Source: Solirubrobacter sp.
Lineage (GTDB): Bacteria > Actinomycetota > Thermoleophilia > Solirubrobacterales > Solirubrobacteraceae
Reading direction: 5' to 3'
Length of the DNA: 64,000 nt
Assembly: GCA_035555675.1 (NCBI GenBank)
Contig: DATMGH010000067.1
Span: forward strand, 61,442 to 125,441
The translations under genes were made by a program, and so were the position numbers. The notes under the pieces are model-generated. The model saw only the letters and a program-made list of their open reading frames with translations, made no database searches and had not been told where the DNA came from. Positions 1-4,257 of the stretch are shown here, one piece after another. The stretch's first letter is position 1. Each line of letters starts with the position of its first letter.

Positions 1-1
1 C

Positions 2-1333
2 GACTACGAGATGATCAACGTGCACCCGTCGCTGCTGCCGCGCTGGCGCGGCGCCGCGCCGATCGAGCGCGCGATCATGGCCGGCGACGCCGAGACCGGC
101 GTGGCGATCATGCGCGTGACCGCGGGCTGGGACGCCGGCCCGGTCTACGCGACCGCGACGACTCCGATCGGCCCCGACGACGACTACGGCACGCTCGCCG
201 CTCGCCTGCAGGACATCGGCGCCGACCTGCTGGTCGACGTGCTCGACGAGCACCCGGCCCCGCAGCCGCAGGACGAGGCGCTCGTCACCTACGCCAACAA
301 GATCGGCCCGCGCGAGCGCGCGCTGGACCCGACCGAGACCCCGGAGCAGGTCGAGCGCACGATCCGCGCGCTGCGTCCGCACATCGGCTCCCGCCTCCCG
401 CTCCCGGACGGCACGTTCCTGGGCGTCCTGGCCGCGCGCGTCGACGGCCCGACGCGCGCGCCGGCCGGCGGCCTCGTCCGCACCGAGGGCGACCGGCTCC
501 TGCTCGACTGCCACGGCGGGGCGCTGGAGCTGACCGAGATCCGCCCGCCCGGCGGCACCGCGATGCGGACGGCGGACTGGCTGCGCGGCCGGCCGGACCC
601 GGCGCTCGTCAACTTCCGGCTCGACCCGGCGCTGCCGGACCGCGAGCTCGCCGAGCTGCTCGAGCGCGCCCGCGCCGAGTGGGCCGACCTCCAGGACGAG
701 TGGCAGCCGCACGTGTGCGCGCTCGCGGCCCGGGGCGCAGCGCCCGTGACCGACGCGATGACCGAGCTGGCCGGCGACGCCGACCCGCAGGCCCGCGAGC
801 TGGCGGCCTACGTGCTCGGGCAGCTCGAGCACGGCGACCCAGAAGCGCAGGCCGCGGCGCTCGTGGACCTCGCCGCCGGCGAGTCCGACCCGGCGGTCCT
901 GTGCGCGGTCGCTGCCGCGTTCGGCCACCTGGGGGACCCGCACGGCCGCGCCTGGCTGCTGGCCAACCGCGCGCACCCGGACGCCGACGTCCGCGAGGCG
1001 GTGGCGTTCGCGCTCGGAGGCCGCAGAGGGGCGGACGTGCGCGACGCGCTGATCGCGCTCTCCGCCGATCCCGCGCCCGGCGTGCGCGACTGGGCGACGT
1101 TCGCGCTCGGCACGCTCGCGTCCGAGGACGACCAGGCGCTGCGCGACGCGCTCGCGGCCCGGCTCGACGATCCGGACGAGGACACGCGGTTGGAGGCCGT
1201 GCACGGCCTCGCGCTGCGCGGCGACCGCCGCGCCCAGGAGCCCGCGCGTGAGCTGCTCGAGCAGCACGCGGCGGACGGCGTCTGGACGCGCCACCTGCTG
1301 GCCGAGACGGCGAGCCGTCTCGGCGACGACTGA
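2..1333 (+). CDS. fmt: Methionyl-tRNA formyltransferase (5' end outside window) fused in frame to a C-terminal HEAT-repeat domain
   Basis: INVHPSLLPRWRGAAPIERAIMAGD..TGV and DAGPV Fmt motifs. After the usual Fmt end (LELTEIRPPGG..WLRGR) the ORF continues about 240 aa with HEAT-like repeats (DADVREAVAFALG, DPAPGVRDWATFALG, DPDEDTRLEAVHGL). Confidence 0.9.
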   Translation, partial: DYEMINVHPSLLPRWRGAAPIERAIMAGDAETGVAIMRVTAGWDAGPVYATATTPIGPDDDYGTLAARLQDIGADLLVDVLDEHPAPQPQDEALVTYANKIGPRERALDPTETPEQVERTIRALRPHIGSRLPLPDGTFLGVLAARVDGPTRAPAGGLVRTEGDRLLLDCHGGALELTEIRPPGGTAMRTADWLRGRPDPALVNFRLDPALPDRELAELLERARAEWADLQDEWQPHVCALAARGAAPVTDAMTELAGDADPQARELAAYVLGQLEHGDPEAQAAALVDLAAGESDPAVLCAVAAAFGHLGDPHGRAWLLANRAHPDADVREAVAFALGGRRGADVRDALIALSADPAPGVRDWATFALGTLASEDDQALRDALAARLDDPDEDTRLEAVHGLALRGDRRAQEPARELLEQHAADGVWTRHLLAETASRLGDD

Positions 1334-1334
1334 G

Positions 1335-2672
1335 CTACCAGGCCGGCGTCGCGGCCGGGTCCGCCGTCTCGGCGGGCGCGGGCGGCGGCGTCTGGGTGGG
1401 CGCCGCGGCCTCGGCCGCCGGGGCCGGCGTCTCGACCGGAGCCGGGGCAGGTGTCTCGACCGGAGCCGGAGCGGGCGTCTCGACCGGAGCGGGAGCGGGC
1501 GTCTCGACCGGAGCGGGAGCCGGCGTCTCGACCGGAGCCGGAGCCGGAGTCGGGGCGGGCGTCTCGGCCGGCGCGGGGGTCTCCGTCGGCGTGGGCGTCG
1601 GGGCCGCGGGCGCCTCGGGGACCGGCGCGCTCTGCTCCGGCGCCTCAGGCGTCGGGGTCGGGGTCGGCGCCTCCGGGGCGGGCGTCTCGGTCACCGGCGC
1701 GGGCGCCTCCACGACCGGCGGCTGCTCCTCCGGCGGCGTGGTGGGCTCCTCCGTCTGCACGGGCGGGGCGCTCTCGACGGGCGGCGGCGTCGTCGTGTGC
1801 GACTCCTCCGGCTCGTCGACGGTGATCGGCGTCGTCTGGGTGATCGGCGGGACCGGCTGCCCGTCCGGGTAGCCGTCGCCGTTGTTGTCTTCCAGGCCGT
1901 CGTCGATGCCGTCGCCGTTGGTGTCCCGGTTCAGCGGATCGGTGCCGTTGCGCTCCTCGTCGGCGTTGCTCACGCCGTCGCCGTCGGCGTCGTCGTTGCC
2001 GTCGATCACGCCGTCGCCGTTGGTGTCGATCCAGCCGCCCTTGGAGCGGATGCGGAGCTCGGTCGCCTGCGTCAGCCCGGAGCTGGTCACGACCCCGCGG
2101 TCGCTCGCGTCGTTGGCGTTGCCGCCGCGCGCGGTCTCGAAGCTGTCGCTCAGGCCGTCGTTGTCGGTATCGGGGTTCTTGAACTGGGGCGGCGCGTAGT
2201 CGGCGCTGCCGGACGCGGGCTGCGTCGACGAGCTGCGCCCGGACGTGAGGCTGGCCTGCTCCGGCGTGTCGGCCACGGGGGTGCCCGAGCCGGTCACGTC
2301 GCCGAGCGTCAACGTGGCCAGGCCGCCGGACGTGCCGGGACCGCCGGCCGCGGCCGTCCCGCCGAGCCCGGTCGTGGTCAGCGCGGAGACACCACCGAGG
2401 GCCGGGCCGCTGCCGCCGCCGCGCGAGGACGGGTGGTGCGAGGGGATCCGGGGCGCCTGCGCCTGCGCGAGCACGACCGGCGCGCCCGCGGCCTCGGGCC
2501 GCAGCCCGTCGGGCCAGTTCTTCCAGCCCACGAGCGGCGCGGCGAGCGCGCCCAGGCCAAGCGTGCCCGCGACCAGCCCGGCGGCGATCGTGCCGGCGAA
2601 GCGCAGGTCACCGAGCGCCGTGGGACGGTCCGCGCGCGCGGCCAACGAGTGAGTGCTGTCAGTGTCCGACAT
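1335..2672 (-). CDS. Membrane-anchored or secreted protein with DxDxDG (thrombospondin type 3-like) Ca-binding repeats and a Pro/Thr/Glu/Ala-rich tail
   Basis: N-terminal hydrophobic stretch; DTDNDGLSD, DTNGDGVID, DADGDGVSN, DTNGDGIDD and DNNGDGYPD motifs; ETPAPAPV repeats. Start ATG 2672 chosen from GAAGGGG upstream. Confidence 0.8.
   Translation of the reverse strand: MSDTDSTHSLAARADRPTALGDLRFAGTIAAGLVAGTLGLGALAAPLVGWKNWPDGLRPEAAGAPVVLAQAQAPRIPSHHPSSRGGGSGPALGGVSALTTTGLGGTAAAGGPGTSGGLATLTLGDVTGSGTPVADTPEQASLTSGRSSSTQPASGSADYAPPQFKNPDTDNDGLSDSFETARGGNANDASDRGVVTSSGLTQATELRIRSKGGWIDTNGDGVIDGNDDADGDGVSNADEERNGTDPLNRDTNGDGIDDGLEDNNGDGYPDGQPVPPITQTTPITVDEPEESHTTTPPPVESAPPVQTEEPTTPPEEQPPVVEAPAPVTETPAPEAPTPTPTPEAPEQSAPVPEAPAAPTPTPTETPAPAETPAPTPAPAPVETPAPAPVETPAPAPVETPAPAPVETPAPAPVETPAPAAEAAAPTQTPPPAPAETADPAATPAW
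1425..1544. repeat. Five 24-bp coding tandem repeats (ETPAPAPV on the minus strand)
   Basis: Units of the form cggcgtctcgaccggagccggagc start at 1425, 1449, 1473, 1497 and 1521. Confidence 0.95.
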
Positions 2673-2928
2673 GTGTGGCATCCCCTTCCATGGGGAGGTG
2701 TCGGCAAGTTGTACGCGGTCCATTAGCCCTGTTGGGACAAATTGATCCGGGGAGGCTGGTTTTGGACGAACGTTCGATCACGTCGGAAAAGGCTGCAAAC
2801 AGCGTGTTTTGGTGCTCAAGTATTAGACCGGAAAATGGACTTCTGTACGAGGGTTCGGCGCACCGCCGGTTCCACCGCGGACCGCGCCGCAGAGCCAACC
2901 AGAAGACCAGGCTCTCGTAAAGACTGCC

Positions 2929-4257
2929 GTGCCGAAACTGGACCTTCCATCAGGTCGGGGCTCCATCGCTCCGGCGCGTGCGTGCGCGTACGCCGTGATC
3001 CGGCGCGTGTTCGAGGACGCCGCGTGGGCGGACCGGGCGCTCTACGGCGAGGCACGTCGCTTCGAGCTCGACGCGCGCGACCTCGCCCTGGCCACCCGGC
3101 TGAGCTTCGGGACCGTGCAGCGCGTCGCCACCCTCGACCACGTGATCGAGCGCCTCGCGCGCCGGCCGTCAACTCGGCTGGACGCCCCGGTGCTGGCCGC
3201 CCTGCGGCTGGGCGTCTTCCAGCTCGTGTTCCTGGACCGCGTGCCCGCGCACGCGGCCGTCGGCGAGTCCGTCGAGCTGGCCAAGCGCGACGCGCCGCGC
3301 GGGGCCGGCCTGGTGAACGCCGTGCTGCGCCGGGCCGCGGGCCAGGCGCGAGCGCTGGTCGAGGCGCTCCCGGACGCGACGCCCGAGCAGGCGGCGCTCA
3401 AGCACTCCCACCCGGAGTGGATCGCGCGGCTGTGGTTCGAGACGTTCGGCCGCGAGACCGCGACGGCGCTGATGGCCGCCGGCAACGAGCCGGCCGAGCC
3501 GGCCCTGCGGGCCAACACGCTGCGCACCACGGCGCCGGCGCTGGCCGAGCGGCTGCCCGCGCACGCGCTCGACGACGAGACGCTGATCCTGGACGGGCCG
3601 TTCGACACGTTCTCCTCGCCCGAGTTCGTGCAGGGCCTGCTGATGCCGCAGTCGCGCGCAGCCGCGTCCGTCGCACGCGCGCTGGCGCCGCAGCCGCGCG
3701 AGCGCGTGCTCGACCTGTGCGCCGCGCCCGGCGGCAAGACCACGCACCTGGCCGCGCTGATGCGCAACCGGGGCGAGATCGTCGCCGTCGAGAAGCATCC
3801 CGGCCGCGCGCAGGCGCTCCGGCTGACCGCGGCCCGCATGGGCGCCGCGATCGTCACGGTGCGGACGCAGGACGCCACCGAGCCGCAGGGCGGGCGCTTC
3901 GACCGCGTGCTGGTCGACCCGCCCTGCAGCGACCTCGGCACGCTCGCCTCGCGCCCGGACGCGCGCTGGCGCAAGGCGGGGCGCCCGGAGGCGCTGGCCG
4001 AGCTGCAGGCCCGCATCCTGGCCGCGGGCGCGGCGGCGCTGAAGCCCGGCGGTACCCTCGTCTATTCGACGTGCACGATCTCGCCCGCCGAGAACGAGCG
4101 CGTCGTGGCAGCCTTCCTGGCCGCCCATCCGGACTTCACCGCCGAGAGCCTCGAGCCGGAAGTCTGGAAGCATCCGACCATGCCGCAGTTCCTGCAGACC
4201 CTCCCGCACCGCGACCGCACCGACGGCTTCTTCGTCGCGAGGCTGCGGCGGGCATGA
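2929..4257 (+). CDS. rsmB: 16S rRNA m5C967 methyltransferase RsmB/Sun
   Basis: NusB-like N-terminus, DLCAAPGGKT SAM motif, VLVDPPCS and YSTCT cysteine motifs, DGFF C-terminus; follows fmt as usual. Confidence 0.95.
   Translation: MPKLDLPSGRGSIAPARACAYAVIRRVFEDAAWADRALYGEARRFELDARDLALATRLSFGTVQRVATLDHVIERLARRPSTRLDAPVLAALRLGVFQLVFLDRVPAHAAVGESVELAKRDAPRGAGLVNAVLRRAAGQARALVEALPDATPEQAALKHSHPEWIARLWFETFGRETATALMAAGNEPAEPALRANTLRTTAPALAERLPAHALDDETLILDGPFDTFSSPEFVQGLLMPQSRAAASVARALAPQPRERVLDLCAAPGGKTTHLAALMRNRGEIVAVEKHPGRAQALRLTAARMGAAIVTVRTQDATEPQGGRFDRVLVDPPCSDLGTLASRPDARWRKAGRPEALAELQARILAAGAAALKPGGTLVYSTCTISPAENERVVAAFLAAHPDFTAESLEPEVWKHPTMPQFLQTLPHRDRTDGFFVARLRRA

Follow-up and report, generated by a model that had tools for sequence, protein, structure and literature searches.

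A methionyl-tRNA formyltransferase joined to a YibA-family HEAT-repeat domain, inherited across Solirubrobacter and three sister genera

Methionyl-tRNA formyltransferase (Fmt) is a near-universal two-domain enzyme that normally acts alone. In a 64,000-nucleotide stretch from Solirubrobacter sp. (assembly GCA_035555675.1, contig DATMGH010000067.1; G000:C67:61442-125441), called the window in this paper, the fmt reading frame runs on past the pentapeptide WLRGR into a series of HEAT-like repeats. Are the two parts really one gene, how did they come together, and what may a helical-repeat domain do on this enzyme? The fusion was found to be real, old, single and vertically inherited, and it is common to four genera of the Solirubrobacteraceae; the HEAT half is probably a protein-docking or shielding module carried by an intact Fmt. 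Sequences with this Fmt-HEAT architecture are already public and are annotated as plain Fmt, while no published description of it, and no paper combining methionyl-tRNA formyltransferase with a HEAT repeat, was found.

The 5' end of the fusion gene is cut off by the window edge. Its start is a TTG at L001:1211, 290 nucleotides upstream of the window on the same contig, and its product has 540 residues. From base 2 of the window onward, frame 2 is open up to the TGA at 1331-1333. Pfam assigns Formyl_trans_N and Formyl_trans_C up to the last residue of WLRGR, followed by three HEAT_2 matches and one HEAT match, and the NCBIfam models matched are fmt (TIGR00460) and, on the extension, PRK09687 (the E. 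coli YibA model). With a GC content at third codon positions (GC3) of 0.98 for Fmt and 0.96 for the extension, the frame is coding over its whole length. An earlier note on this DNA, made from the letters alone, had described a frame that passes WLRGR into HEAT repeats, and this description holds, including the motifs WLRGR, VRDWATFALG and DTRLEAVHGL on which it was based. The stop of the preceding gene def and the TTG start of the fusion gene overlap as cTTGA, which implies translational coupling, and the order of the locus is priA, def, fmt::HEAT, a convergent proline-rich gene and rsmB. At about 75% GC, long stop-free open reading frames also arise in non-coding frames over the gene (1-1251 on the plus strand, 416 residues; 2-1294 on the minus strand, 431 residues). 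In window positions 1-1300, GC3 is near 0.97 in frame 2 only, and length alone is no proof of a gene here.

An apparent fusion may also result from a sequencing or assembly error, or from a recent loss of a stop codon that joined two genes. The gene is indeed in pieces in four assemblies of the genus (G002, G005, G008 and G013), all with few contigs. These assemblies are only 50-87% complete, and the essential Fmt domain itself is broken in them as well (residues 57, 150, 171 and 190), so that the broken copies are regarded as error-type frameshifts and not as separate genes. A six-frame search of 41 related genomes recovered the entire 540-residue query, with no stop, from 13 further species of the genus (70-78% identity); genome G020, which is flagged as unpublished, contributed one partial unfused Fmt row, on which no claim rests. 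The same uninterrupted frame is present in 20 other genomes and more than 110 clusters from independent projects, and none of the relatives has a stop at the junction. The junction WLRGRPDPxLTxF[RW]LDPxLPDR is common to the 20 checked genomes from the four genera and to the more than 110 clusters; a search with the junction peptide had been proposed in the earlier note. Within the genus, the extracted reading frames are 541-555 residues long and show no indel at the junction, which reads WLRG(R/Q)(P/R)D..L..FR(L/F)DP(A/T)LP(D/E)R. An artefact is thus refuted. The proposal that two genes fused after a stop codon was lost stands in its first part, the gene fusion; a recent stop loss in this genome does not, as 20 genomes of four genera share the junction.

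The distribution of the fusion is confined to one clade. The HEAT part was searched in 201 genomes from 51 genera of the family as defined by GTDB, and it was found at full length in g1 (Solirubrobacter, all six genomes), g34 (six of six), g59 and g63; four other genera contained only distant stand-alone homologues with 37-47% identity. All six loci examined from the three sister genera are fused and have the same junction. In a public protein collection, more than 110 clusters (at 90% identity) of 538-590 residues have the same four Pfam domains, and their sources are numerous soil metagenomes as well as Solirubrobacter soli, S. deserti (CPCC 204708), S. phytolaccae and Ca. S. pratensis. The database names of these proteins are only "methionyl-tRNA formyltransferase" or "formyltransferase family protein". 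Independent Fmt-HEAT fusions elsewhere were sought among 1.84 billion representatives; a single further true full-length cluster was obtained, P0234 (578 residues), which belongs to the sister genera. The long matches P0240, P0289, P0242, P0276, P0290 and P0303 have patchy Pfam assignments and look like frameshifted gene calls from long reads.

When the Fmt domains of 20 fused and 13 unfused proteins were analysed by maximum likelihood, without the HEAT part, a branch with 100/100 support separated all fused proteins from the others, and their clade lay within the unfused Fmt of the family. One fusion event is indicated, because the fused genes form a single clade within the unfused ones. The order of genes points to what happened at the locus. 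By tblastn, the start of rsmB lies 6-316 nucleotides past the fmt stop in nine genera of the family that lack the fusion, and the order in E. coli is def-fmt-rsmB; in the window, rsmB sits beyond the convergent proline-rich gene, and two genes thus appear to have been inserted between fmt and rsmB, one of which joined fmt. A homologue of the convergent gene follows the fusion in eight of nine fused loci examined (L010 to L050), with all four genera represented, and because of this shared position it seems to have arrived with the HEAT module. The stand-alone homologues (about 270 residues) begin exactly where the linker of the fusion ends, and the 578-residue fusions of the sister genera retain the C-terminal tail of the stand-alone family, which is trimmed in Solirubrobacter. 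Both features fit the capture of a complete gene. The proposal that Fmt had gained a scaffold domain by fusion with a HEAT gene is accordingly well borne out, as the extension is homologous over its full length to the stand-alone YibA-family proteins. A stand-alone HEAT gene beside fmt, as an intermediate stage, was not seen in any of the nine unfused genera, where rsmB directly follows. Relatives with separate fmt and HEAT genes and a stop between them, which would speak for two genes, were likewise not met with: outside the clade no HEAT gene lies at fmt, and inside it all are fused. The course of events would then have been as follows. In the ancestor of Solirubrobacter and the three sister genera, a stand-alone YibA-family HEAT gene may have landed between fmt and rsmB together with the gene of a convergent proline-rich membrane protein, and the HEAT gene may then have fused in frame with fmt at its 3' end, with a new linker of 17 residues between the two.

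The Fmt half is expected to work as usual on Met-tRNAfMet, because everything needed for its formylation has been kept. Over residues 1-294 its identity to E. coli Fmt is 40%, and the catalytic Asn, His and Asp are aligned: INVHPSLLPRWRG (INVH motif) and D141 correspond to the catalytic residues of E. coli, and among 98 fused proteins H105 and D141 are invariant and N103 nearly so. The segment SLLPRWRG aligns with E. coli Fmt (motif SLLP(R/K)xRG), and like the tRNA-recognition loop TRPDARQGRGRKL of the N-domain it is invariant or nearly so in the same 98 proteins. The loop that recognizes the acceptor end, TRPDARQGRGRKLAPPPV, is aligned to TQPDRPAGRGKKLMPSPV of E. coli. Both PF00551 (Formyl_trans_N) and PF02911 (Formyl_trans_C, a beta-barrel that binds tRNA) were matched, the latter over positions 1-99 of 100, and Foldseek aligned the model to 2FMT, 1FMT, 5UAI and others with template modelling (TM) scores of 0.84-0.88 (0.85 for 2FMT). 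No other Fmt-like gene was found in the genome, and the single copy together with the def-fmt(-rsmB) synteny supports orthology to fmt. The TIGR00460 score is 193.8 bits for the whole protein and 195.7 bits for the Fmt part alone, both under the curated cut-off of 201.5. Unfused Fmt of the same family and order scores 182.5-199.7 bits, also below the cut-off, so the shortfall is a trait of the lineage and not an effect of the fusion; the narrow miss across the lineage explains the cautious RefSeq name "formyltransferase family protein". The Fmt half thus shares with the known enzyme (TIGR00460; 2FMT, 1FMT) both domains, the catalytic residues, the SLLP motif, the tRNA loop and the single copy after def. 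The difference lies in the 245 extra C-terminal residues, since canonical Fmt ends about ten residues past the position equivalent to WLRGR. Judged by its sequence, this half is the only methionyl-tRNA formyltransferase of the cell and is predicted to formylate Met-tRNAfMet.

The extension forms a solenoid of 14 helices, with two capping helices (ELLERARAEW..DEWQPHVCALAARG) ahead of five to six helix-turn-helix units, which are repeats of the PBS/alphaRep type. A profile of the family (A2), built from fused and stand-alone members, matched the YibA structure 1OYZ in the PDB with an E value of 3.4e-35 in one collinear stretch (15-269 against 26-276), and BLASTP against E. coli YibA gave 26% identity (E 3e-16) with the shared motifs VR[DN]WAxFA and D..E.R.EA..GL..R.D.R. 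The model of the HEAT part alone had a predicted local distance difference test (pLDDT) value of 93 and a predicted TM score (pTM) of 0.90. Its top Foldseek match was again 1OYZ (TM 0.73), which was also the best match in a VIA search that is independent of Foldseek (Z 20.7; root-mean-square deviation 3.5 over 232 residues). The remaining top structure matches were designed alphaRep proteins with the same 31-residue repeat type, and when the family profile was compared with PDB sequences, alphaRep designs likewise ranked next after YibA. The consensus D..VR..AA.ALG is shared with alphaRep and with the PBS-lyase (E/Z) HEAT repeats (CpcE/F, NblB, MTH187); the PBS-lyase proteins differ in their phycobiliprotein context, which is lacking here. 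The PRK09687 score is 108 bits for the extension and 117-118 bits for other fused orthologues, against an equivalog cut-off of 275. The HEAT domain resembles E. coli YibA (1OYZ; PRK09687) in fold, length, collinear alignment, motifs and the character of an acidic helical solenoid, and it is unlike YibA in its low identity, its score below the cut-off, the lack of a Rhs or toxin neighbour and the covalent attachment to a housekeeping enzyme. By sequence it is a relative within the YibA family and not a YibA equivalog, and a tblastn search with YibA in its own genome matched this domain only.

Three other assignments of the HEAT domain were rejected. Deoxyhypusine hydroxylase is a di-iron enzyme whose HEAT repeats carry four metal-binding His-Glu motifs. 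The extension has no His-Glu dipeptide, and the profile match to deoxyhypusine hydroxylase (PDB 4D4Z) is weak and partial (E 6.7e-10), so an enzyme of this type is not indicated. A phycobilin lyase does not fit either, with negligible scores of 26 bits for NblB (cut-off 300) and 13.8 bits for CpcE (cut-off 330), and the organism is not cyanobacterial. The PADLOC models of defence systems gave weak generic HEAT matches only.

We know of no mechanism for YibA, although its structure has been solved. The C-terminal region of RhsA, a protein encoded just upstream of yibA, was reported to inhibit growth, and yibA to neutralise this inhibition (Poole et al., 2011; PMC3150448). This region is the Pfam Ntox34 domain, and Imm-HEAT was listed as the immunity partner of Ntox34 (Zhang et al., 2012; PMC3482391). 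The one member of the family whose function was tested is therefore a protein binder, and the view of the earlier note that similar HEAT proteins are usually independent proteins of the interaction or immunity type agrees with the place of YibA in the Imm-HEAT family. From this background it could be argued that the HEAT part is still an Imm-HEAT antitoxin against an incoming Ntox34-like or other polymorphic toxin from competitors; its attachment to the constitutive def-fmt operon would then either do no more than guarantee its expression or protect formylation, as the step on which the toxin acts. The full-length match to YibA with the shared RDWATF-type patch agrees with such an orphan immunity function, and so do the rarity and patchiness of stand-alone homologues, which were found in three of 400 other genomes sampled across the phylum, as expected of accessory immunity genes. 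A further hint comes from G266, a Streptomyces-like actinobacterial genome of 7.5 Mb, where a protein of ankyrin repeats plus a YibA-like HEAT domain (VRDWATLAL; L059:775-2244, plus strand) is encoded tail to tail, at a distance of 25 nucleotides, with a secreted ribonuclease of the barnase/RNase Sa type (microbial ribonuclease, PF00545; L059:2270-2737, minus strand), which suggests an inhibitor or immunity pair. A tblastn search with the C-terminal 150 residues of E. coli RhsA found nothing significant in the own genome, in accordance with an orphan. Yet genes of this kind are usually volatile, whereas the fusion is fixed in every genome of the four genera, with a linker that is conserved and confidently modelled. 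No toxin gene adjoins the fusion, whose neighbours are def upstream and the gene of the TSP3/proline-rich membrane protein downstream, and the YibA model is matched far below its cut-off. A search for Ntox34 (PF15606) in the 41 relatives was empty, although the control genomes were equally silent. An orphan immunity protein is considered unlikely on this evidence.

The fused and stand-alone forms differ in the linker. Its 17 residues are conserved throughout the fused orthologues (D305 and P309 without exception), and neither unfused Fmt nor the stand-alone HEAT homologues have them. The structure prediction proposed in the earlier note was made for the full-length protein; the AlphaFold model had a pLDDT of 93.2 and a pTM of 0.84, and because the linker exceeds a pLDDT of 90 and forms a short beta bridge (301-302), a fixed orientation of the solenoid on the Fmt C-terminal domain is suggested by the model. 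Such an arrangement would also fit an additional tRNA-binding platform, as in the epoxyqueuosine reductase QueG, a tRNA-modifying enzyme whose C-terminal HEAT-like domain holds the anticodon stem-loop (PMC5175355): the solenoid directly follows the tRNA-binding C-terminal domain of Fmt, and the modelled orientation is confident. The chemistry of the surface speaks against it. The HEAT domain of the window protein has an isoelectric point (pI) of 4.5 and a net charge of -25, and among 20 orthologues the values are 4.1-4.7 and -18 to -35, which makes protein a more likely ligand than tRNA. The invariant arginines occupy the structural VR position of each repeat, and the closest relatives are stand-alone proteins without a link to tRNA. 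The domain of QueG is a six-helix bundle that lies on RNA phosphates, unlike the 14 helices of the acidic YibA-family solenoid; QueG was not among the PDB sequence matches of the family profile, and no sequence relationship was detected. A tRNA-binding platform is, in our view, rather improbable.

The constraint on the extension gives a further line of evidence. Compared with the window protein, the orthologues are on average 80% identical in the Fmt part and 65% in the extension, and the ratios of nonsynonymous to synonymous substitution rates (dN/dS, NG86 method) are 0.35 and 0.52, although at 96-98% GC3 such values are unreliable in absolute terms. By these comparisons, both parts are under purifying selection. 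Beyond the linker, the invariant residues of the extension among the 98 fused proteins include W324, W331 and P333 in the cap and the run R459-D-W-A-T-F464. RDWATF is nearly invariant in the profile A2 too, is kept in stand-alone homologues from other phyla and corresponds to RNWAAF in E. coli YibA. Its residues D460, W461 and F464, together with E495, H498 and Q371, fall on the positions that are variable in alphaRep and form the concave face, and RDWATF with E495, H498 and Q371 is a candidate patch for ligand contact. The whole concave face was not found to be more conserved than the rest of the domain on average, as only the RDWATF/E495/H498 patch in repeats 4-5 stands out.

These data also bear on the idea that the HEAT part is a neutral passenger, fixed by chance, without a ligand, and kept since its removal would damage the folding or expression of Fmt. 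The faster change of the extension relative to Fmt, the missing C-terminal tail in Solirubrobacter, which the sister genera keep, and the small number of co-adapted Fmt positions would all be consistent with this. The solenoid, though, is lost or truncated in no genome of the clade, and its length and junction are fixed. Moreover, an invariant patch in surface register that is common to distant stand-alone homologues would not be expected without a ligand. We regard a neutral passenger as doubtful, with little probability.

The reading that we favour as probable is an inherited fusion in which the HEAT half serves as a docking or shielding module. The HEAT half would be non-catalytic, an acidic solenoid held at one set position on the C-terminal domain of Fmt, as the model indicates, and its conserved patch of D460, W461, F464, E495 and H498 would be the ligand site of the family. 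Family membership, charge and the conserved patch together point to protein as the ligand: the HEAT half most likely binds protein, either bringing a partner to the formyltransferase or keeping one off, and direct binding of tRNA is less likely. Several points weigh on the other side. The rigid docking is a prediction from the confidence values of the model. The positions in concave register, averaged over five repeats, have a conservation of 0.72 compared with 0.74 for the rest of the domain, and the Trp and Phe of the conserved patch could be structural. In Fmt, just five positions show a fixed state peculiar to the fused clade (four lie in the C-terminal domain); they speak only weakly for co-adaptation and are too few for an interface map.

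A more specific form of docking follows the logic of the Rosetta stone: if fused proteins act on the same step, YibA/Imm-HEAT proteins would act on the step that Fmt serves, and the solenoid would bind an attacker or regulator of the formylation of Met-tRNAfMet, for example a toxin like Ntox34 or a regulatory protein of the cell's own. We hold this to be speculative and give it a low probability. If it were true, the fused domain would guard or regulate translation initiation in these bacteria as part of the enzyme itself, and it would point to the cellular target of the Ntox34 toxin family.

The features of the locus are collected in Table 1.

Table 1. Features of the fusion gene and of its downstream neighbours; positions are those of the window unless a contig is named.
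Feature	Position	Strand	Details
Fmt part within the window	2..592	+	residues 98-294 of 540; Pfam, E. coli Fmt alignment, Foldseek
First 97 codons of Fmt	G000:C67:61152-61442		upstream of the window
End of the catalytic N-domain with INVHPSLLPRWRG; whole tRNA-binding C-domain ending WLRGR (window residue 197, nucleotide 592)	within 2..592	+	
Fusion-specific linker PDPALVNFRLDPALPDR	593..643	+	residues 295-311; orthologue alignments
YibA-family HEAT solenoid	644..1330	+	residues 312-540; Pfam, NCBIfam, profile, models
RDWATF patch	1085..1102	+	residues 459-464
TGA stop of the fusion gene	1331..1333	+	1 nucleotide from the end of the convergent downstream gene
Pro/Ala-rich membrane-anchored protein, 462 residues	1335..2723	-	open reading frame; Pfam TSP3_bac
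rsmB (16S rRNA m5C967 methyltransferase)	2929..4257	+	ancestral immediate neighbour of fmt

The 462-residue protein encoded downstream has an N-terminal membrane anchor, a Ser/Gly-rich spacer and bacterial TSP3 calcium-binding repeats (DTDNDGLSD, DTNGDGVIDGNDDADGDG); its C-terminal region is proline-rich, with about five tandem PAPVETPA units, and ends in ATPAW. The product of def (L001:624-1214, upstream of the window) carries an N-terminal extension of about 25 residues (MADEGHTEAHGEVAEPHDRLDPAARARREAA...) ahead of the usual Def start. A scan of window positions 1-3000 for promoters and terminators found none.

The stand-alone homologues do not have a shared gene context, as their neighbours vary (Zn_peptidase, Peptidase_S15, PPK2, LysR, an aminotransferase and ychF in the loci compared). 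Outside Solirubrobacter, the closest ones occur in Dactylosporangium, Myxococcus stipitatus and Actinoplanes. The closest one within the family has 298 residues and 47% identity and lies in G041 (L051:4179-5075, minus strand) on a contig other than that of fmt; it failed the filter on GC3 and on the GC content at second codon positions that was applied to the surrounding genes, and it may have been acquired horizontally. Besides the fusion, S. phytolaccae (G014, L052:4051-4953) and G010 (L053:4159-5055) have a stand-alone paralogue of about 300 residues with 41% identity, which in both adjoins a putative neutral zinc metallopeptidase (PF04228). A more distant homologue, from genus g52, has an S15 X-Pro dipeptidyl-peptidase as its neighbour. 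That peptidases recur beside these genes may be due to chance.

Domain accretion as such is common, and other fusions of the formyltransferase core include ArnA, FDH and HypX. Among the fold matches, the sugar N-formyltransferases QdtF/FdtF (4XCZ, 5UIJ) come near in plan, with a formyltransferase core followed by a C-terminal helical-repeat domain. Their repeats are ankyrin and not HEAT, and their substrates are nucleotide sugars and not tRNA, so that they represent an independent fusion; work of the Holden laboratory is said to have found that the ankyrin domain of QdtF/FdtF binds a second dTDP-sugar.

The Fmt-HEAT protein is a lineage-specific architecture of a universal enzyme, and the function that we give to its added part is inferred only. 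The architecture is hidden by automatic annotation, and it provides a clean marker of a four-genus clade of soil actinobacteria within the Solirubrobacteraceae. For the YibA family, the fusion offers a functional link that can be tested. The whole clade has long run its only Fmt with a complete solenoid of the protein-binding type attached, and because the solenoid has been kept for so long on the sole Fmt, it is probable that these bacteria physically link the formylation of their initiator tRNA to something else.

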